Assembly (NCBI GenBank): GCA_031520405.1
Contig: GCA_031520405.1_4842.1
Origin: a phage
Reading direction: 5' to 3' (one strand)
DNA length: 64,000 nucleotides
Every line of letters starts with the position of its first letter. Position 1 is the first letter of the stretch. Positions 6,947 through 64,000 of this stretch are shown piece after piece. The notes beneath the pieces were generated by a model. It ran no database searches. It was not told where the DNA came from and saw only the letters and a program-made list of their open reading frames with translations. Both the position numbers and the translations under genes were made by a program.

Positions 6947-6973
6947 AACCCCGCTTCGGCGGGGTTTTCCTTT
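6947..6973 (+). terminator. rho-independent terminator
   Basis: AACCCCGC-TTCG-GCGGGGTT hairpin followed by T-run. Confidence 0.7.
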
Positions 6974-13301: not shown

Positions 13302-13329
13302 AAACCCCGCCGAAGCGGGGTTTTTCTTT
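13302..13329 (+). terminator. rho-independent terminator
   Basis: AAACCCCGC-CGAA-GCGGGGTTT hairpin plus T-run. Confidence 0.7.
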
Positions 13330-15564: not shown

Positions 15565-15583
15565 ATTTAAAATTTATTCAATA

Positions 15584-15618
15584 AACGGGGTTTACTTCTT
15601 CAATAAACCCCGTATACT
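15584..15618 (+). promoter_or_regulatory. early-promoter cassette: hairpin overlapping -35 GTTTAC, 17-nt spacer, -10 TATACT
   Basis: ACGGGGTTTA...TAAACCCCGT hairpin; GTTTAC(15590-15595)-N17-TATACT(15613-15618); conserved leader to ATG 15667. Confidence 0.45.
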
Positions 15619-15666
15619 TCATTCCATAAGCAGCACAACACTGACTCTGAAATGAAGGACTACACC

Positions 15667-15963
15667 ATGAACAACATGCCAACCACCAAAACTGCTCTGG
15701 AAATCGATTCTCGCTTTATCGTTGAAGCATGGGCCAACAGCCAAAACTCTTATGTGTATTCCCTTTATGTCGGTGACACTTATGTTTCTTGCCTCGGCAT
15801 CGACGGCTCCAAGAACGAGCACGGCGTGAACGAGCGCTATACCAAAAAGCAGGCTATCGCTGATGCTACCAAATTCGCGACCGACATTCTGGGTCGCATC
15901 AATGCGGGTAAACCGTACAAACGCGGTGAAAAGGGCTATGTCACCCAATTGCTTGGTGCTTGA
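15667..15963 (+). CDS. hypothetical protein (N-terminus MNNMPTTKT; member of recurring early gene module)
   Basis: AAGGA RBS; leader and N-terminus resemble those of genes at 51770 and 57644. Confidence 0.5.
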   Translation: MNNMPTTKTALEIDSRFIVEAWANSQNSYVYSLYVGDTYVSCLGIDGSKNEHGVNERYTKKQAIADATKFATDILGRINAGKPYKRGEKGYVTQLLGA

Positions 15964-16032
15964 TTTGTTCTAAACCTTTGAACGGGGTATGTTAACCGCA
16001 TACCCTATCCCCTACAAATAGAGGACTTTACC

Positions 16033-16377
16033 ATGACAGTCGACACCAAACTGAATAATTCCGTGGAGATCCCCCACATCGTCAAATTCGAAAAGCCGAG
16101 CGAGCGTAAGCCACGCAAAACGCGCCGCCTGGTCACCAAGCTGGATCTTCTGAAACAGAAGTTCGGCGATCACAGTGTGTTCACTCGCATCCGTAACGCA
16201 TTAAAGGAAGGGCGAACCGAGTTGGAGCTATATCGTCCAAACGGTTCCACTCGTGCGTATCAGACCACCGACGGCTTGCTGGAACTGATCCGCCTCTCGG
16301 GAATGAGCATAGAACCTCGTTCATCAGGGACTCCCTTGTGCAGCCTGTATGTAATCGGCAATCTTGGGGCGCTGTGA
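16033..16377 (+). CDS. hypothetical protein
   Basis: ORF with GAGGA RBS. Confidence 0.5.
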   Translation: MTVDTKLNNSVEIPHIVKFEKPSERKPRKTRRLVTKLDLLKQKFGDHSVFTRIRNALKEGRTELELYRPNGSTRAYQTTDGLLELIRLSGMSIEPRSSGTPLCSLYVIGNLGAL

Positions 16378-24617: not shown

Positions 24618-25082
24618 ATGGCGCGTAATACGCTGGACATCTTAAAACTTTCAGCTGTCAACGATGAGGCCAGCATTGTTGACTGTATGGTTGAAGTCCA
24701 ATTGAACCAAGACAAACCAGGGATTTTCCTGGGTATCAAGGAAACGCTGAGTCGGATAGGGGTTAACACTCGTCAAGAGCCTAACACCTTGTATCAAACG
24801 TGCCATATCCTGCATAAATTTGGCAGATATCACATCGTGCATTTCAAGCATTTGTTCATGCTAGATGGGCACTACAACGGCTTTACGCGTGAAGATGTCC
24901 TGCGTATGAATCGGATTATACGGCTTCTGGAGCAATGGAATATGGTTAAGATCTTGCATCCGGAACAAATAACCGAAGTGGCTGACATGTCTCGGATCAA
25001 AGTTGTAAAACATGACCAAGTTTCTGAGTGGAAATTGGTTCCAAAATACACTATTCGCCCAAGTCGGGCAAAAAGCGAATAA
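24618..25082 (+). CDS. regA: translational repressor RegA
   Basis: LYQTCHILHKFGRYHIVHFKH and EWKLVPKYTI match T4 RegA. Confidence 0.85.
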   Translation: MARNTLDILKLSAVNDEASIVDCMVEVQLNQDKPGIFLGIKETLSRIGVNTRQEPNTLYQTCHILHKFGRYHIVHFKHLFMLDGHYNGFTREDVLRMNRIIRLLEQWNMVKILHPEQITEVADMSRIKVVKHDQVSEWKLVPKYTIRPSRAKSE

Positions 25083-36780: not shown

Positions 36781-36859
36781 ATACGATAGTTTATTGAAAC
36801 CCTTTACTCAACATGGTGACAGCCCTATCATTTTATCCAATGAAATAAGGAGAATCACC

Positions 36860-44053: not shown

Positions 44054-44581
44054 ATGATTGAAATATACACTGACGGGGCATCATCCCCTCAGAAGACACG
44101 AGCCGCTGGTTGGGCATTTGCCATCAGTCCAATCACTGGAGAGCAATGGAAAGTGTTTTATGGGTATTTACCCCCGCCGTCAACGAACAATATAGCTGAG
44201 TTACTCGGGGTTATAAACGCGATGAAGATCCTATGGAAATTCTCTAATTGCGGTGAACGCTGCATTCCCCCAGCCCGCATTATATCCGACAGCCAATATG
44301 TTATCAATAGCGTTTTGGAGTGGCGTCGTAAATGGGAATATGAAGGAATGCCGCCTAAGAACACAGAACTTCTGCTCGAGTTGTTCGATTATTATGACAA
44401 AGTTTGTTCAATTTGTGAACTTGAATTAAAATGGGTGAAAGGTCATGCAGGAACGATGGGCAACGAAATTGCGGATCAGTGGAGCGTTAGAGCCAAAGAA
44501 GATAGTTCAATGGTTCTTGAAAATAACCGTTTCTCGGTCAAGAAAGTCGTTGGTTCTTTCAATGAATTCATTGGTATTTGA
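44054..44581 (+). CDS. RNase HI-like ribonuclease H
   Basis: IEIYTDGAS, NNIAELLGVINA, DSQYVIN, WVKGHAG...NEIADQ match bacterial RNase HI catalytic motifs. Confidence 0.75.
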   Translation: MIEIYTDGASSPQKTRAAGWAFAISPITGEQWKVFYGYLPPPSTNNIAELLGVINAMKILWKFSNCGERCIPPARIISDSQYVINSVLEWRRKWEYEGMPPKNTELLLELFDYYDKVCSICELELKWVKGHAGTMGNEIADQWSVRAKEDSSMVLENNRFSVKKVVGSFNEFIGI

Positions 44582-44591
44582 GGATTATGCA

Positions 44592-45314
44592 ATGGGTATT
44601 CCATTCGTTTACTGTTTGGAAAGTAAGGATGGTCATTTGTATTTTGGTTCCAAGATTGGTGAAGAGTCTGATCCAAAGCAGCTCATGGAAACATATTTCA
44701 CTTCATCAAAATATGTAAAAGATTTGATGAAATCAAAAGGAAATGATTATTTTCAGGTAGTGGGTATAGAAATATTCCCCAACCAACCTGAAGAAGCGTT
44801 TTGGAAAGAACAACAATTGATAGAGTCCTTTTACGGCAACCCCATGCTACTAAACAAACATTATCAAACTGCTGGAACTAAACCGTGGACTCAATTAGGT
44901 AGAAAGGGGAATCAACAGTATTTGTTTGGCAATGGGCACCTCCGCGCTGGCAAAAACAATCCTATGTATGGCAAACAAGGAGCCATGAAAGGTATTACAG
45001 GGAAAGACCATCCTGCCTATGGCGCAGATCGTTCAGGTTCCAAAAATGGCATGTTTGGAAAATATGGAGAATTACATCACCATTATGGAACTCCTCCATG
45101 GGAAGTTCCAATAAGCAAGAAATTGGGAACTTCTAAACATTGGTTGGATGCAGAAGAAATACGTTTGGAATGGATTGCTGGCGCAAGGCAATGCGACTTG
45201 TCAAGAAAATATGGAATTAGCATAAAGACTATTGAAACTATGGTCGGCAAATTCCGTTCCGGTTGGATACCTTCACAAGACCCTCAGTGGATTAATTTTA
45301 AAGGTGGTGTATAA
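44592..45314 (+). CDS. Seg-like GIY-YIG homing endonuclease with NUMOD3-like repeats and C-terminal HTH
   Basis: FVYCLESKDGHLYFGSK GIY-YIG core; repeated G-x-N-P-x-Y-G-K linker motifs; HTH-like segment near C-terminus. Confidence 0.6.
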   Translation: MGIPFVYCLESKDGHLYFGSKIGEESDPKQLMETYFTSSKYVKDLMKSKGNDYFQVVGIEIFPNQPEEAFWKEQQLIESFYGNPMLLNKHYQTAGTKPWTQLGRKGNQQYLFGNGHLRAGKNNPMYGKQGAMKGITGKDHPAYGADRSGSKNGMFGKYGELHHHYGTPPWEVPISKKLGTSKHWLDAEEIRLEWIAGARQCDLSRKYGISIKTIETMVGKFRSGWIPSQDPQWINFKGGV

Positions 45315-46108
45315 TGTGCGCTATGAATTATGTGGACAGGGGTGATAATGTCACCAAATATTTCACTGACGAAGATAATGACCGTGTTGTTGGAATATTG
45401 AGAGATTGGATTCCGGCTCGCAAAAAGGCTTTGGCCGAAGGAACACCCCTACCAAGAATCCCCAATTATGTGGCCATGAATGTTCAGATGATTATTAAGA
45501 ACATGAGTATGCGCTACAACTATCGTGATTATCCATACCGCGAAGACATGGTCAGTGAGGCCGTTGTCAACATCCTTCGTTACCTCCATACATTTGACGT
45601 CAGTCATATCGGCAAGAAAGGAAAAATCAATTTCTTCTCTTGGGTAACGATGTGCGCCGATCGTTCATTCGCCAAGAAACTCACCAGTGAAGAAGAACAC
45701 AATTATATCAAGTTGCGTTCATTTGAAGAAGCAGGTGGTTTCGCTGCATTATCAGATGACCCAGACTTCCAGCAACAGACATTCGTAGACAGCACTGGTA
45801 TAACAATGGACTTTCGTGAGCGTATCGGAAATTTTGAAACTAAGAAAGAAGCCCAGCGCGAAAAGGAACGCCAAAAGCAAATCGCCATCAAAGAAGAGGA
45901 AAAGAATAAGAAAATTCCTCGCGGTATACTTCAATGTCTCACAAAGAGTGAAAATACCATTACCGCCGACGCCGAAGATAATTCAGACTATGACTTCGGC
46001 TCTACTCAATTCAATCTGGAAGACGAAATATGTTCTATGGAACCAGATTGGGAAGAAGCAAAGAAACGAGCATTAGAACGGGAGCAACAAAATAATGGCG
46101 ATTGCTAA
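45314..46108 (+). CDS. late sigma factor gp55-like, with extended acidic C-terminus
   Basis: VAMNVQMIIKNMSMRYNYRDYPYREDMVSEAVVNILRYLHTFD parallels T4 gp55 core; adjacent to gp47 as in T4. Confidence 0.6.
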   Translation: MCAMNYVDRGDNVTKYFTDEDNDRVVGILRDWIPARKKALAEGTPLPRIPNYVAMNVQMIIKNMSMRYNYRDYPYREDMVSEAVVNILRYLHTFDVSHIGKKGKINFFSWVTMCADRSFAKKLTSEEEHNYIKLRSFEEAGGFAALSDDPDFQQQTFVDSTGITMDFRERIGNFETKKEAQREKERQKQIAIKEEEKNKKIPRGILQCLTKSENTITADAEDNSDYDFGSTQFNLEDEICSMEPDWEEAKKRALEREQQNNGDC

Positions 46109-50409: not shown

Positions 50410-51027
50410 ATGACGATGACAACGTTGAAGGCCATGGCCTTGTCTGTGACCTTTACCATTGCCAGCGGGAGTGTGCACGCTTCCCAAAGTACCACCCAAT
50501 GTGATTACGAATTTTCTGATCAGCAACTTTCAACTATGGCCACTGCCTATCACATAGGCAAACAGCAAGACCTTGGTTTCACCCTCGCCGCGATATCATG
50601 GAGGGAAAGCCGCGCCGGAGAAGATGTTGTATCCATGCGGAATAACCTGAAATCGGCTAACATGGGGGCATTTCAAAATCGCGTCCAAACCGTCGGGAAA
50701 CGGGAGGGATGCAAAACACAGAAGTGTTACGCCAACGTGGCGATTAAATTGCTGGTCAATCAAGAGTACGCAGCCAATGCAGCCCTTGATGAAATGAATT
50801 TCTGGCTAGAATATCATAACCAAAACATCCGCAAATCGCTCTCCTCTTACAATGCCGGTTTCAGTCGTAACCAAAAATCCAATTCATACGCTGCTGATGT
50901 CGTGAAGAAGGCTAAATATCTTCAACGATGTGTGTCTTTCAAAGGCATGGCAATAAACCCAAAGGTCGACCCAGGAGTGATCGCCATGAATAAGCGCACG
51001 ATTGAGAAACTCAAGAGGACCAGATAA
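50410..51027 (+). CDS. secreted lytic transglycosylase (SLT)-like protein
   Basis: signal peptide ...SGSVHA|SQ; AISWRESRAG...ANMGAFQ resembles SLT catalytic-Glu motif; AAGGA RBS. Confidence 0.45.
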   Translation: MTMTTLKAMALSVTFTIASGSVHASQSTTQCDYEFSDQQLSTMATAYHIGKQQDLGFTLAAISWRESRAGEDVVSMRNNLKSANMGAFQNRVQTVGKREGCKTQKCYANVAIKLLVNQEYAANAALDEMNFWLEYHNQNIRKSLSSYNAGFSRNQKSNSYAADVVKKAKYLQRCVSFKGMAINPKVDPGVIAMNKRTIEKLKRTR

Positions 51028-51665: not shown

Positions 51666-51678
51666 ATTATTCAATAAA

Positions 51679-51721
51679 AGGGGCGTTTGCCCCTTTACTT
51701 CTTCAATAATCCACGTATAAT
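51679..51721 (+). promoter_or_regulatory. early-promoter cassette: hairpin, -35 CTTTAC, 17-nt spacer, -10 TATAAT
   Basis: AGGGGC-GTTT-GCCCCT hairpin overlapping CTTTAC(51693-51698)-N17-TATAAT(51716-51721). Confidence 0.45.
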
Positions 51722-51769
51722 TCTAAACATAAGCAGTACGACACCAACTTGAAACGAAGGAACTATATT

Positions 51770-52129
51770 ATGGCTATCACCACAAAAACTGAATTGAACG
51801 CGATCCTGAAAGAAGCTGGCTTCGGTAGTATCAAACGCCAGGGCAAGGTTTTACGCGATGGCGGTAAAATTGTAAAGGGCATCATGTTGGGAAGTACTGG
51901 CCCGTTGAGCATCAGCTCCCCTCAGTATGACAATCTTCGTAAACTGGCGCGTGAACTTCTCCAAGAAGACCTCCATATCACGACGCAAGAAACCAATTAT
52001 GTGGTTTTGGAATGCAACAAATTCATCGTCAGCCTTTACATCTGCAGCACCCGCTCATATCCGGTGTCTGAAGGTTATGACCCAATGTATCTGACCCATT
52101 ATGCTCAGGTTACTGTCAAAGCAAAATAA
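51770..52129 (+). CDS. hypothetical protein (N-terminus MAITTKT; recurring early gene module)
   Basis: leader GAAACGAAGGAACTATATTATG; N-terminus resembles 15667 and 57644 genes. Confidence 0.5.
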   Translation: MAITTKTELNAILKEAGFGSIKRQGKVLRDGGKIVKGIMLGSTGPLSISSPQYDNLRKLARELLQEDLHITTQETNYVVLECNKFIVSLYICSTRSYPVSEGYDPMYLTHYAQVTVKAK

Positions 52130-52140
52130 TCAAATTCAAC

Positions 52141-52166
52141 GGGGAGCTTCGGCTCCCTTTTGGTTT
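52141..52166 (+). terminator. rho-independent terminator
   Basis: GGGAGC-TTCG-GCTCCC hairpin then T-run. Confidence 0.55.
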
Positions 52167-52213
52167 CGCTAATTAAGGGAAACCGCACCGATTTTATAAT
52201 CAGGAGAATTACA

Positions 52214-54196
52214 ATGGCCATCCCATCTTTCTTGAACTTTCTTGAAGAGTCTAAACAATTAGACGAAGCGTTTAACTCATCCCCATATGAATTGACATTC
52301 GGCAAGAAGAACGCTGGCGACATTTTCTTCACATTTGTTGATGAAGACGAAAAAGAATTCCGTATTCAATTCTATACCCCACAAGGTCTAGGCAAGAATG
52401 TTCGCCAAGTCTTTATCGGTCAGAAGCGTGGTTCCACATATCCCGATGCCATCGGTCGCTTTAAGAATCCGATGCGTGTTATCGCATCCATGATTGAAGC
52501 AACAAAGCAATTCATGGCGACGCCTTTGGGGAAAACCATTGACGGCTTTGCAATTAACTTCTCCAAGAAAGCATTGGAGCGTGGTGTTACCCTCCTGCCG
52601 AAGATTATCCGTCAGTCTGGACTGAAGCAAAAGCTCAATGTCATGGACCTGACGTATACCCCTATCCCTGATCGTGCATTCGTATGGGTTGTGCGTAAAG
52701 GCAAGGATCCTGCTCAGGTATTCGATGGCCCGAAAATGAAAGGTGTCACATGGGATGATCCAGACAAGGTCGGCGACGTTCCGGTTCAGAACAGCGTTGA
52801 TGGCGTTGTGGGTGGAACTGGCCAAACCATTGTTGTTGGTGTTGATTTCCGTTCTGAAATGGAAGACTTGGATATTTCGGTTTCTGGAAATGATATCGCA
52901 GTGATGGATGGGCGTAAACTCGTAGTGTCTTTCACTGATCCCGAGACAGCTAGAATCATTTCTGGGATGAAAACCCCTTCTGCTGCAATTACCAATTTCA
53001 TGCAAAAAACGAATCCAGGAAGATACACTGGAAACATCAAAGTTAACAGCACGAGTACCCGCAGTGGCAAGAAATATGAATTTATTGCTTCCGACTCATC
53101 TGGGAAACAATTGTTCAATCTAAACGTAGAAGATTCCAGAAAAACAAACTTGGGAACCGGGGATGGTTCTTCATCTTCTGTTGATGATTCCAACGGATGG
53201 AAATTAACTTCAAACGGGGATCAGCCCATGTTGATCTGGGCTGGCAAGGAGAGAGGCCGCATGAACACGGCAAATATCGCTCCCCACTATAATGAACCGG
53301 GCGTGTATGTTGGTGCTTACATGAATGAGAAATCTGTGCGTGGGCAAAGTGCTGATTTCATTGCTCGTCAGTTGAAATTACCGCAAGTCCCTATCAGTAT
53401 CCTGAATGATTTCACCACGGCGTCCACAAAATTTTGGAAAGGTTCTCAGCAGAAGTCCGCGCCAGCTGACTCCAACACCCTCAGTTCTAACGACCTAAAA
53501 ATCCCGCGCAACGCCGACGTGTTTGGTGAAACTAGTAGTGGTTTCTCCGTTCGGTGGGCTGTCAATTTCCCCGAAACGGGAAAATATGCCGGTACTTCTA
53601 TGATAACCAACGTAACCTATTATCATGACAAAGGCAAAGTTGCATTCACCCCAATTGTCTCCCAGAAAGGGCGTACCCTGAACAATCCGAAGACCTATGA
53701 ACTCCCTTTGAACAAAGATTTGGTCCAGAGTGTGATTGATGAGATTTCATCAAAAATGGAATATCTTTCCAGAAACCTCCAACAGTTGAAAAGTCAGACA
53801 TACAACCCAAACCAGGTTTTCTTGAATGATATAACCATCACGGATAAAGGTGAAGTGATTTGGAACGATTACTACTTGTCTGACGGCAAAGTTACACAAA
53901 TTATGCTGTCCATGATAAGCGCAGAAAATAAACGCTTGGAGAAAGTGACAAACAAGCCGGATATCACATTACCAAAGAAACAAGCCGAAGTAGTAGAATT
54001 TATAAACCGGATGATTGATATTGATCTCGGACCTTATTTGAGAGAACCCAAAAAACGTGATGTGGTATTATTTGACTCTTCTGAATTGTCGATAAACCAA
54101 CTCAACAACATAGAACGCCTGGGAAGAGAAACAGGAAAATGGTCTCTTCAGCCAAACGGTGGTATGGGCCATGCACTATTTCTGAATGTTTGGTGA
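52214..54196 (+). CDS. hypothetical protein (660 aa)
   Basis: ATG 52214 with AGGAG RBS; bracketed by terminators. Confidence 0.55.
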   Translation: MAIPSFLNFLEESKQLDEAFNSSPYELTFGKKNAGDIFFTFVDEDEKEFRIQFYTPQGLGKNVRQVFIGQKRGSTYPDAIGRFKNPMRVIASMIEATKQFMATPLGKTIDGFAINFSKKALERGVTLLPKIIRQSGLKQKLNVMDLTYTPIPDRAFVWVVRKGKDPAQVFDGPKMKGVTWDDPDKVGDVPVQNSVDGVVGGTGQTIVVGVDFRSEMEDLDISVSGNDIAVMDGRKLVVSFTDPETARIISGMKTPSAAITNFMQKTNPGRYTGNIKVNSTSTRSGKKYEFIASDSSGKQLFNLNVEDSRKTNLGTGDGSSSSVDDSNGWKLTSNGDQPMLIWAGKERGRMNTANIAPHYNEPGVYVGAYMNEKSVRGQSADFIARQLKLPQVPISILNDFTTASTKFWKGSQQKSAPADSNTLSSNDLKIPRNADVFGETSSGFSVRWAVNFPETGKYAGTSMITNVTYYHDKGKVAFTPIVSQKGRTLNNPKTYELPLNKDLVQSVIDEISSKMEYLSRNLQQLKSQTYNPNQVFLNDITITDKGEVIWNDYYLSDGKVTQIMLSMISAENKRLEKVTNKPDITLPKKQAEVVEFINRMIDIDLGPYLREPKKRDVVLFDSSELSINQLNNIERLGRETGKWSLQPNGGMGHALFLNVW

Positions 54197-54268
54197 AACT
54201 AGCTGGGCTTGAACAGAACAAAGCCCCTTCGGGGGCTAATTACATCTAAATCCCCGAGGAGAGATCCA

Positions 54269-54838
54269 ATGAAACCTTTTATCGAATATTTTAAAGAGCA
54301 AGCTGCACAGCCTCAGACCCATGCTGGTGTCCAGGGTAAGACCGTATCCATCACCAAGCAAGCTGACGGAACTCAATGGTGTACTGGTACCACCGTGACC
54401 CAGATCACTCCAGATAATCAGGCCGACATCTATAATCTGGAATTGACTAATGGCAACACCACCAAAGTAAAACTCACACCAGACCAGGTTCATGCAGTTT
54501 CTGTCGGTAAAGATGTGGTTGCCGTTCATGACGGTTTTGAGTTCTTCTTTGGGAAAGATGCCAGCAAAGGTCAGGTCACAGAATCCTATGCCCAAGAATT
54601 GGCGAACATGGATAAGATGATCGGTAAAGCGCTGGGCGTTGGCAAATCTCGTAAAAGCGGTCGTACAGAGTTTGAATATTCCGGTATTCCTGGTATTGGA
54701 AAACCTGTCGCAATCGACTTCGGCGGAGAAGACGATCCATATGTAATTGTCACAGTCGCTGGCAAACAGCATGACATCAGTAAGGGGAAAACCCTAGCTG
54801 CGGACATTGCCAAATATATCGGCGTTAAACCTGTCTAA
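54269..54838 (+). CDS. hypothetical protein
   Basis: ATG with GAGGAG RBS. Confidence 0.5.
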   Translation: MKPFIEYFKEQAAQPQTHAGVQGKTVSITKQADGTQWCTGTTVTQITPDNQADIYNLELTNGNTTKVKLTPDQVHAVSVGKDVVAVHDGFEFFFGKDASKGQVTESYAQELANMDKMIGKALGVGKSRKSGRTEFEYSGIPGIGKPVAIDFGGEDDPYVIVTVAGKQHDISKGKTLAADIAKYIGVKPV

Positions 54839-54847
54839 GGAGGTTGT

Positions 54848-55090
54848 ATGAAAGGATTCCAGGACTTCCTCTTGAAGGAAGCAAAGGTTGACCATCGCCG
54901 TCTTGGACAGCAGGGCATGTATGACATCACCGATGTTGGCCGCCCAACCAAAGGCGAACTGATCGATTACTACAATCGCAACGGTGATAAGCGGCAGGGG
55001 AAAGTGAAGTCCGTGAACGCGCAAGACATCATGACCCTGACAGACACCGACACGGGTGAAACCGTCAAGATGACTCTGGTCAAGCCGTGA
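54848..55090 (+). CDS. hypothetical protein
   Basis: ATG with AAGGAGG RBS. Confidence 0.45.
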   Translation: MKGFQDFLLKEAKVDHRRLGQQGMYDITDVGRPTKGELIDYYNRNGDKRQGKVKSVNAQDIMTLTDTDTGETVKMTLVKP

Positions 55091-55095
55091 TTACA

Positions 55096-57444: not shown

Positions 57445-57473
57445 AACTTTTTAACTCAAAAACCTTCTCTCTA

Positions 57474-57498
57474 GGCCTCATTCTACGAGGCCTTTTAA
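57474..57498 (+). terminator. rho-independent terminator
   Basis: AGGCCTC-ATTCTAC-GAGGCCT hairpin then TTTT. Confidence 0.5.
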
Positions 57499-57536
57499 AA
57501 TACTTCAAAAATAATTTAAAAATTTATTGAAAAAGA

Positions 57537-57566
57537 CTTTACTCTTCAATAATCATGCACTATTAT
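57537..57566 (+). promoter_or_regulatory. early promoter: -35 CTTTAC, 18-nt spacer, -10 TATTAT
   Basis: same -35/-10 architecture as cassettes at 15590 and 51693. Confidence 0.4.
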
Positions 57567-57643
57567 AGTTCACATAGGGCGGTACACAACACCCCGCCGA
57601 ATGAAAAGTGAAACGACCCAACTACATTATGAGGAATTACATC

Positions 57644-58132
57644 ATGGCTACTACCAAAACTCTGATCACCAACGGCACCATCTCTTTTGAACTGAACACC
57701 GAAGTTGCAAAAGTTGAAATGTTCCGCATCGCTCAGGCAGCTGGCTTCACTGGTGGCAAAACTTCCTTCATGAATCTGCTGAACGGCAAAGTGAAAGCGA
57801 CCAACGGCTTCACCCTGGTAGAGCAGGTTGTCGTAGACAAAGCTGTAGTTGCCAAGACTGCTGACAAGGTTGGCATGCTGAAAGACCTGGGTCATGACAT
57901 CCACGTTGTCGAAGCGAATACTGAAACTTACGGCACCATCGTAGTCGGCAAAGGCCGCATTCAGCTGAACCCGCTGAACAACGGAACCTTCTCCGTGATG
58001 GTATTCCCGAAAAAGGGTTATGACAACAGTGATATCGTGAAAGCCGCTGGCGGTGAAGCGAAATCCCAGTATGTCAAAATGGGTAAACTGAGCGCCGACG
58101 CAGTAGAAACTCTGGTGAACAAACTGGCTTAA
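57644..58132 (+). CDS. hypothetical protein (N-terminus MATTKT; recurring early gene module)
   Basis: GAGGAA RBS; strongly biased codon usage; followed by terminator. Confidence 0.55.
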   Translation: MATTKTLITNGTISFELNTEVAKVEMFRIAQAAGFTGGKTSFMNLLNGKVKATNGFTLVEQVVVDKAVVAKTADKVGMLKDLGHDIHVVEANTETYGTIVVGKGRIQLNPLNNGTFSVMVFPKKGYDNSDIVKAAGGEAKSQYVKMGKLSADAVETLVNKLA

Positions 58133-63970: not shown

Positions 63971-64000
63971 AGCCCCCATTATACGGGGGCTTTACTTTTC
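63971..64000 (+). terminator. rho-independent terminator
   Basis: AGCCCCC-ATTATAC-GGGGGCT hairpin then T-rich run. Confidence 0.6.

Follow-up and report, generated by a model that had tools for sequence, protein, structure and literature searches.

Three loci in a 64,000-nt stretch of phage DNA (NCBI GenBank assembly GCA_031520405.1, contig GCA_031520405.1_4842.1; the whole stretch is called the window) combine a stem-loop, a predicted promoter and a leader ahead of a gene. These loci are probably copies of a dispersed regulatory and recombination cassette of the promoter-early stem-loop (PeSL) type, which in this phage of the Ackermannviridae would provide patches of homology for gene exchange. 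They were named A (15565-15669), B (51666-51772) and C (57473-57646). Four observations carry this reading: the anatomy of the loci, the family of further copies to which they belong, the lack of homology among the genes behind them (the cargo), and the footprints of exchange in comparisons with related phages.

The window was 96% identical to Salmonella phage vB_SalA_KFSST3 over 97% of bases 40000-64000. Escherichia phage CBA120 (minus strand, ~113 kb to 50 kb) was collinear with the whole window and showed 97-99% identity outside a few replaced segments. By its sequence the phage is a Kuttervirus of the Ackermannviridae (ViI/CBA120 group). Nearly all window genes lie on the + strand, as do the cassette elements and cargo genes described below. 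To compare cassettes, 44 unique copies from the window, CBA120 and IMG/VR contigs were aligned using MAFFT.

Anatomy and distribution of the cassettes

The first-pass annotation had proposed the same architecture at the three loci, and every element that it described was found at the positions given. In cassette B, an AT-rich tract (ATTATTCAATAAAA, 51666-51679) runs into a terminator-like stem-loop, AAAGGGGC-GTTT-GCCCCTTT (51677-51696; -13.6 kcal/mol, z = -4.1). The T-rich tail of this hairpin overlaps the -35 of a predicted promoter at 51694-51721 (TTTACT 51694-99, 16-nt spacer, TATAAT 51716-21). The leader CATAAGCAGTACGACACCAACTTGAAACGAAGGAACTATATT (51728-51769) contains AAGGA at 51757-61 and is followed by ATG at 51770.

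The AT-rich, UP-element-like tract of cassette A (ATTTAAAATTTATTCAATAA, 15565-15584) lies directly 3' of the stop codon of the upstream gene (15562-64). Its stem-loop, with arms ACGGGGTTTA and TAAACCCCGT (15585-15613; -14.0 kcal/mol, z = -4.6), is kept in all A copies. This hairpin encloses the -35 and the spacer of the predicted promoter (15591-15618; TTTACT 15591-96, 16-nt spacer, TATACT 15613-18) instead of preceding the -35, and has no U-tail. The leader CATAAGCAGCACAACACTGACTCTGAAATGAAGGACTACACC (15625-15666) carries AAGGA at 15655-59 and leads to ATG at 15667.

At cassette C the stem-loop AGGCCTC-ATTCTAC-GAGGCCT, followed by TTTT (57473-57493; -12.1 kcal/mol, z = -4.4), sits 44 nt upstream of the promoter. 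The AT-rich tract (57494-57537) and the predicted promoter (TTTACT 57538-43, 17-nt spacer, TATTAT 57561-66) together occupy 57494-57566. The leader (57573-57643) has a 5' hairpin (57578-57598), a degenerate copy of the ribosome-binding region (GTGAAACGACCCAACTACATTATG, 57608-57631) and GAGGA at 57631-35, and ends at ATG 57644. The ribosome-binding region is duplicated in tandem at 57608-57646. Copy 1 (ATG 57629) lacks a Shine-Dalgarno sequence and is overlapped by the working copy 2, GAGGAATTACATCATG. This duplication looks like recombinational slippage inside the cassette.

Several elements are common to the three copies. Each AT-rich tract contains (T)TATT(C/G)AA(T/A)AAA, each spacer contains TTCAATAA, and AAGGA or GAGGA lies 7-8 nt ahead of the ATG at 15667, 51770 and 57644. 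The alignment of 44 copies yielded the shared plan: an AT-rich tract, a GGGG...CCCC stem-loop, TTTACTTCTTCAATAA-N6-TATAMT, a C/A-rich leader, and TGAAAYGAAGGAACTAYAYYATG. The ribosome-binding region before the start is fixed as TGAAAYGAAGGAACTAYAYY-ATG. A similar leader had been claimed for all three loci. The close match between A and B was upheld; the C leader keeps the archetype CATA(A/G)GC(A/G)G.AC.ACAC ... TGAAACGA...AACTACATTATG, into which a 5' hairpin has been inserted and in which the ribosome-binding region has been duplicated. The leaders of A and B are unstructured (fold z = +0.3 and +0.5, respectively). A structured RNA leader was rejected at both loci because they folded no better than shuffled sequences, and an Rfam scan of the whole window gave no match.

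Local alignment of A with B scored 46, compared with 9.1 +/- 1.4 for shuffled sequences (z = 26), and extended from the AT-rich tract into codon 9. Chance similarity between AT-rich sequences was rejected on this result. The alignments of A with C and of B with C gave z = 6.7 and 5.8, so that all three loci proved homologous beyond shuffles in the pairwise alignment that the first-pass annotation had suggested. The extended -35/spacer motif TTTACTYYTTCAATAA, with at most 2 mismatches, was matched 4 times (0.27 expected), and TTCAATAA was matched 19 times (4.5 expected).

The three loci belong to a larger family. Sequences of the type TTTACW-N16/17-TAYWAT occur at 6 window sites. The pattern TTTACT-N16/17-TATNNT was found at 6 window sites, all on the coding strand and all intergenic, and a seventh is cut by the window end. 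The same promoter type is present at 34721, 35077 and 36803 in addition to A, B and C, and stem-loops lie just upstream of a predicted promoter also at 34684-34705, 35040-35061 and 63972-63990. The first two of these stem-loops belong to a tandem pair of cassettes. Copy 1 (34684-34754) has a terminator hairpin, ATCCCCAAC-GTTT-GTTGGGGAT, with a T-run, GTTTAC at 34720 and TATTAT at 34744. Copy 2 (35040-35110) shares 93% identity with copy 1, and its hairpin loop is flipped: the hairpins at 34688-34705 and 35044-35061 have equal stems, and their loops are reverse complements (GTTT vs AAAC). A further promoter, TTTACT-N17-TATCAT, is located at 36803-36831, and comparison with CBA120 shows a 300-nt indel whose end lies 34 nt upstream of it. 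The seventh cassette start (63972-64000), truncated by the window end, has a GCCCCC-ATTATAC-GGGGGC hairpin and TTTACT at 63991.

CBA120 has 9 such promoter sites on the corresponding strand; its RefSeq record contains no promoter features. At least six paralogous sites are defined by the 44-copy alignment. With cassette B as the query, 279 phage records of several genera were matched, usually at two places per record. These include phages of Salmonella, Escherichia, Shigella, Klebsiella, Dickeya, Serratia, Enterobacter and Yersinia, and by their organism names and record lengths all 279 appear to be Ackermannviridae-type genomes. The window also has a second kind of repeated leader-start unit. 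One copy (35403-35467, +) consists of a 5' hairpin, TTTGAAATGAAGGAA, ATG and MTDQ codons, and its partner (35962-36026, +) is 83% identical. The two copies precede two unrelated proteins.

Cargo genes and footprints of exchange

Cassette A is followed by a 98-amino acid (aa) ORFan beginning MNNMPTTKT (15667-15963), in whose place CBA120 has an unrelated gene. Behind cassette B lies a 119-aa ORFan, MAITTKTELNAILKE... (51770-52129), which starts with MAITTKT and was assigned to a family termed B1. Cassette C precedes a conserved gene of 162 aa that begins MATTKT (57644-58132). As judged from their sequences, the three cargo proteins are unrelated to each other. BLASTP among them produced no alignment, and they fall in three different PHROGs, all of unknown function. 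Comparison of the B1 family alignment with the other cargo proteins using hhalign gave probabilities of 0.1-0.5%. Pfam and PDB sequence searches with the three proteins returned nothing significant. The first-pass annotation had suggested a possible family of paralogous early proteins and had named a profile-profile comparison as a check; neither that comparison nor the other searches revealed homology, and the suggestion was abandoned. Homologues of B1 numbered 1 in a word-indexed search and 16 representatives in an exhaustive HMMER search.

Across the relatives, at least three unrelated families stand behind cassette A (MNNMPTTKT..., MTTVKISVWAF... and MTTKAQL...) and at least five behind cassette B (MAITTKTEL/MTKTELN..., MKIILDAY..., MTQLKNF..., MNAIKTDF... 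and MTTVTGF...). Site C is stable: cassette C precedes the same 162-aa gene in 20/20 genomes with a readable downstream gene. The view that promoter, 5' untranslated region and start codon form units placed on different gene bodies was supported, since the cassettes are homologous, unrelated genes lie behind the same cassette in relatives, and the breakpoints fall at the start codon.

The breakpoints were located by comparison with CBA120. At site A, homology on the left stops at 15675, 9 nt past the ATG. At site B it stops at 51772, which is the ATG itself, and restarts at 52152, inside a terminator hairpin, GGGGAGC-TTCG-GCTCCCT with a T-run (52141-52158, +), that bounds the swapped segment on its right. 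The swappable gene A is flanked on its right by a conserved hairpin (15984-16006, +) common to phages with different alleles. At both sites, different alleles have the same downstream hairpin and next-gene leader right after their stop codons. A junction of window/CBA120 homology was present in 5/6 promoter-bearing intergenic gaps, compared with 9/44 gaps overall (hypergeometric P = 6e-4).

One gene appears between duplicated cassettes. A 76-aa ORFan (34799-35029, +), found in only 32 phage records, is bordered by a 71-nt direct repeat of hairpin and promoter (93% identical). CBA120 has one copy of the repeat and no open reading frame (ORF) at this place.

Whole units also differ in history from their surroundings. 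The A1 allele was found in 65 records. In IMG/VR contig L013, identity to the window is 97.3% for the A-site gene, compared with 72% for the upstream DNA and 81% for the downstream DNA. Because the gene is far closer than its flanks, recent horizontal transfer of the A unit is suggested. Phage maane and L031 both have a B-type cassette with a B1-family gene at an ectopic place, behind the tail-sheath gene. The ectopic unit of maane lies between two identical copies of a 26-nt terminator, CCCCGCTTCGGCGGGGTTTTTATTTG. In the window, near-identical terminators of the form AACCCCGC-N4(5)-GCGGGGTTTT are present at 6947-6968, 13303-13324 and 30194-30215, and the same terminator is the one duplicated in maane (L055). 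B1 family genes were found as well in T4-like phages of the genus Bragavirus (Proteus Pm5461 and Shigella SdyM_006), where they adjoin the tail-tube gene and have a GTTTAC-N17-TATTAT promoter and a terminator.

Mosaic cassettes were observed too. B copies of Limestone-like phages have an A-type -10 and discriminator, and A copies of Klebsiella and Serratia phages have a B-type leader. At site B of the IMG/VR contigs L028 and L016, two genes are stacked and joined by TTGAACCGAAGGAACTATATCATG alone, with no promoter between them. These stacked alleles suggest that the 24-nt ribosome-binding region by itself can act as a junction.

Other differences from CBA120 were noted in the neighborhood of the swappable sites. 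Beside site A, the first ~135 nt of gene 16033-16377 (16036-16170) did not align with CBA120, and the rest of the gene is ~98% identical; by this alignment the 5' part of the gene is a replacement. Just past site B, homology to CBA120 is patchy (69-81% or none) at 52783-55091, across the 678-aa ORF 52160-54196 and the next genes, and the alignment marks this segment as a second highly variable one. Exchange driven by homing endonucleases was considered for A and B and rejected, as no endonuclease gene was identified beside them and the neighboring ORFs are domains of unknown function or have no Pfam match. Endonuclease genes do adjoin the post-sheath site. Upstream of site B, 50410-51027 (+) encodes a protein with an SLT lytic-transglycosylase domain (PF01464, which scored at the gathering threshold), and the label 'RegB' that some GenBank relatives give to its orthologue looks like a mis-annotation. 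Elsewhere in the window, a 722-nt segment (44600-45321) between the RNase H and gp55-like genes is missing from CBA120. The 289-aa ORF of this segment (44445-45314, +) has no Pfam match, and the segment may be a mobile insertion.

Proposed role and alternative explanations

The following mechanism is proposed. The GC-rich stem-loop would end the upstream transcript, and transcription would restart from a host sigma-70-type promoter (TTTACT-N16/17-TATAMT) like the early ones of T4. An unstructured, C/A-rich leader of ~40 nt and an optimal ribosome-binding region would then be supplied to the small gene, which would be bounded at its 3' end by another hairpin. Because the cassette would end and restart transcription and supply both leader and ribosome-binding region, the small gene may be an insulated unit of transcription and translation. 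Since the cassettes and hairpins are the only sequences common to unrelated units, they could serve as homology patches for phage recombination. Recombination within them would replace, insert, delete, stack or relocate genes, either within a genome or between co-infecting phages. An equivalent scheme has been put forward for the PeSLs of T4-like phages.

If this reading is correct, the cassettes account for the sites and the manner of exchange of variable small genes in a therapeutically used phage family. The swapped genes are likely to have host-takeover or anti-defence functions. The cassettes also offer candidate early promoters, with predicted start sites, for ViI/CBA120-like phages. Kutter et al. 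(2011, PMC3184105) reported that the early promoters of CBA120 were not identifiable by informatics and listed only eight sigma-70-like candidates. Practical uses would include annotation, the prediction of strain differences, and the choice of safe insertion sites and strong native expression signals in Kuttervirus engineering.

Several points weigh against this reading. Promoter activity, early timing and terminator activity, and an active part of the cassettes in exchange, are what we infer; consensus matches are the basis of the labels promoter, early and terminator. In generic sigma-70 scans the cassette regions showed no enrichment over shuffled sequences. The stem-loop of cassette A would be a poor terminator because it overlaps the promoter and has no U-tail. 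The LIMEstone1 copy of cassette B is already annotated as a 'putative middle promoter' and a 'putative factor-independent terminator', and the word 'middle' conflicts with early expression. The LIMEstone1 authors predicted promoters by similarity to T4. We did not adopt their label because the sequence fits the early consensus and because the middle-mode proteins MotA/AsiA, like the T4 modifiers Alt/ModA, were not recognised in ViI-like phages (Kutter et al., PMC3184105). The cassette alone does not make a site plastic, as the C gene is constant in every genome sampled. Cassette A is 97% identical to the window where the upstream gene is only 72-80% identical, and cassette B is 84-94% identical compared with 74-84% for its upstream gene, but these figures are somewhat inflated because loci L006-L035 were fetched by an exact 22-nt leader pattern, which favors conserved copies. 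Finally, purifying selection on a promoter would give the same breakpoints at conserved non-coding DNA after any replacement, even if the cassettes took no active part.

The similar N-termini of the cargo proteins bear on a first alternative. The likeness pointed out in the first-pass annotation is statistically real: a six-frame translation of the window contains TTKT at only 5 places, of which 3 are the N-termini of the cargo proteins. The leader, the ribosome-binding region and the first codons (ACC ACM AAA ACT) may constitute a post-transcriptional operator, either a putative site for a RegA-type repressor or a translational enhancer. Such an operator would account for both the identity of the leaders and the TTKT N-termini, and it is compatible with shuffling. 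In T4, RegA binds many early mRNAs at their translation-initiation regions. The window encodes a RegA homologue at 24618-25082 (+) (PF01818, E = 4e-35), a candidate binder of the ribosome-binding regions. The leaders of A and B are without structure yet ~97% conserved across genera. The sequence GGA-N1-2-TAYAYY-ATG is found at only 6 window genes, 5 of which come first after a cassette or a repeated leader. Threonine makes up ~26% of positions 2-6 in cassette-driven alleles (manual count), compared with 7% genome-wide.

Other observations do not agree with an operator. The MTKTELN start belongs to the B1 family as a whole, also to its members in other phage families, and the C family contains a clade with MKTIKT in place of TTKT. 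Together these argue against TTKT as a functional tag. Furthermore, many alleles behind the same leader are without TTKT; in CBA120, which has other alleles at A and B, TTKT occurs only in the C gene. As the account of the cassettes, an operator seems unlikely. The TTKT start could have come from crossovers inside the first codons at the microhomology ACCAAAACT, from selection for A/C-rich unstructured codons after the AUG, or from an operator for the RegA-type repressor; each of these origins is possible.

A second alternative is that the cassettes are passive boundaries. They would be strongly selected promoters and ribosome-binding regions, and replacements produced by illegitimate recombination or by ordinary crossovers in flanking genes would merely appear to end there, at the nearest identity kept by selection. 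The cassettes are indeed more conserved than the adjoining genes, as would be a selected regulatory element. Cassette C was never swapped, and the indel near 36803 is without a duplicated cassette. Against passive boundaries stand the inserted ORF 34799-35029 with its duplicated cassette, the identical terminator repeats around the ectopic module of maane, the mosaic A/B cassettes, the stacked alleles joined by the ribosome-binding region alone, and the same allele in diverged backgrounds with identity falling exactly outside the unit. These suggest crossover footprints within the repeated elements. We consider passive boundaries quite improbable, and exchange through the cassettes remains the preferred reading.

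Duplication of one early gene together with its promoter, which would make the three genes paralogues, would agree with the homologous upstream regions and with TTKT near each N-terminus, but this likeness is limited to four residues in proteins of 98, 119 and 162 aa between which the searches described above found no homology, and such an origin is extremely improbable.

Comparison with known systems

The cassettes were compared with four known systems. Morons, described in lambdoid and other phages by Hendrix and colleagues, are promoter-gene-terminator units inserted between genes. The cassette units resemble them in being autonomous promoter-ORF-terminator units between conserved genes, as exemplified by the post-sheath unit in maane and L031. 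The definition of morons comes from temperate phages, in which the prophage typically expresses them. They are not known to have in common a repeated cassette that acts as a recombination patch.

At the internal-protein (IP) locus of T4, unrelated small genes are likewise exchanged behind a conserved 5' sequence that includes the first codons (Repoila et al. 1994, discussed in PMC4122927). The conserved N-terminus of the IP genes is a capsid-targeting sequence of ~10 residues with a protease site, whereas that of the cargo proteins comprises ~4 residues (TTKT), with no targeting function indicated. The predicted promoters resemble T4 early promoters (Liebig and Rueger 1989, quoted in PMC4122927) in having a GTTTAC/TTTACW -35 rather than TTGACA, an A/T-rich tract, and a TATAAT-like -10 at 16-17 nt. 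They differ from them in the conserved spacer sequence TTCAATAA.

PeSLs provide the closest parallel. In T4-like phages they have an AT-rich region and a stem-loop that stands immediately before a sigma-70-like early promoter, and they close at the 3' end with a Shine-Dalgarno sequence and an ATG (Arbiol et al. 2010, PMC2839356; Comeau et al. 2014, PMC4122927). The T4/PST promoter consensus is TTTACW-N17-TAYWAT (PMC4122927). PeSLs adjoin ORFans that differ between close relatives, and crossovers have been placed experimentally in the stem-loop, at the Shine-Dalgarno sequence and in the interval from the -10 to the ATG; mini-circles have been seen as well (PMC2839356; PMC4122927). Experiments on RB49 and phi1 demonstrated mini-circles, terminator activity and promoter strength for their PeSLs (PMC2839356; PMC4122927). 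In the library searched, no paper linked PeSLs to the Ackermannviridae, and nothing relevant was found on Ackermannviridae transcriptomics or Kuttervirus promoters.

The cassettes differ from the published PeSLs in several respects. They occur in the Ackermannviridae, whereas PeSLs were described in the Straboviridae; this is a limit of the published descriptions and not a mechanistic criterion. Beyond the consensus, no nucleotide similarity to PeSLs of T4-like phages was found by blastn (279 matches). Copies A and B occupy fixed positions across several genera, and the stem-loop of copy A overlaps the promoter. Their homology unit is also longer (about 105-120 nt) and includes the ~40-nt leader and the first codons. 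We suggest, tentatively, that the recombining unit exceeds the classical PeSL by this leader and these codons (ACC-ACM-AAA-ACT, TTKT), that crossovers can fall within the reading frame, and that promoter-gene-terminator units could pass between Ackermannviridae and Straboviridae. The presence of the B1 family behind GTTTAC-type promoters in both phage families hints at such passage. If so, the start passed on to new cargo genes would be ready-made, highly expressed and possibly under RegA control.

Several features agree with PeSLs. The order of elements is the same: the GGGG...CCCC stem-loop lies just ahead of the promoter, and the Shine-Dalgarno sequence and ATG close the element. The predicted promoters match the T4/PST consensus, in cassette A apart from the 16-nt spacer. 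Many copies are present per genome (7 in the window and 9 in CBA120). The cassettes adjoin small ORFans that differ between close relatives, and one insertion has a cassette on either side. The stem-loop and the stretch from the -10 to the ATG both carry crossover footprints. These results suggest that PeSL-type modular shuffling extends beyond T4-like phages.

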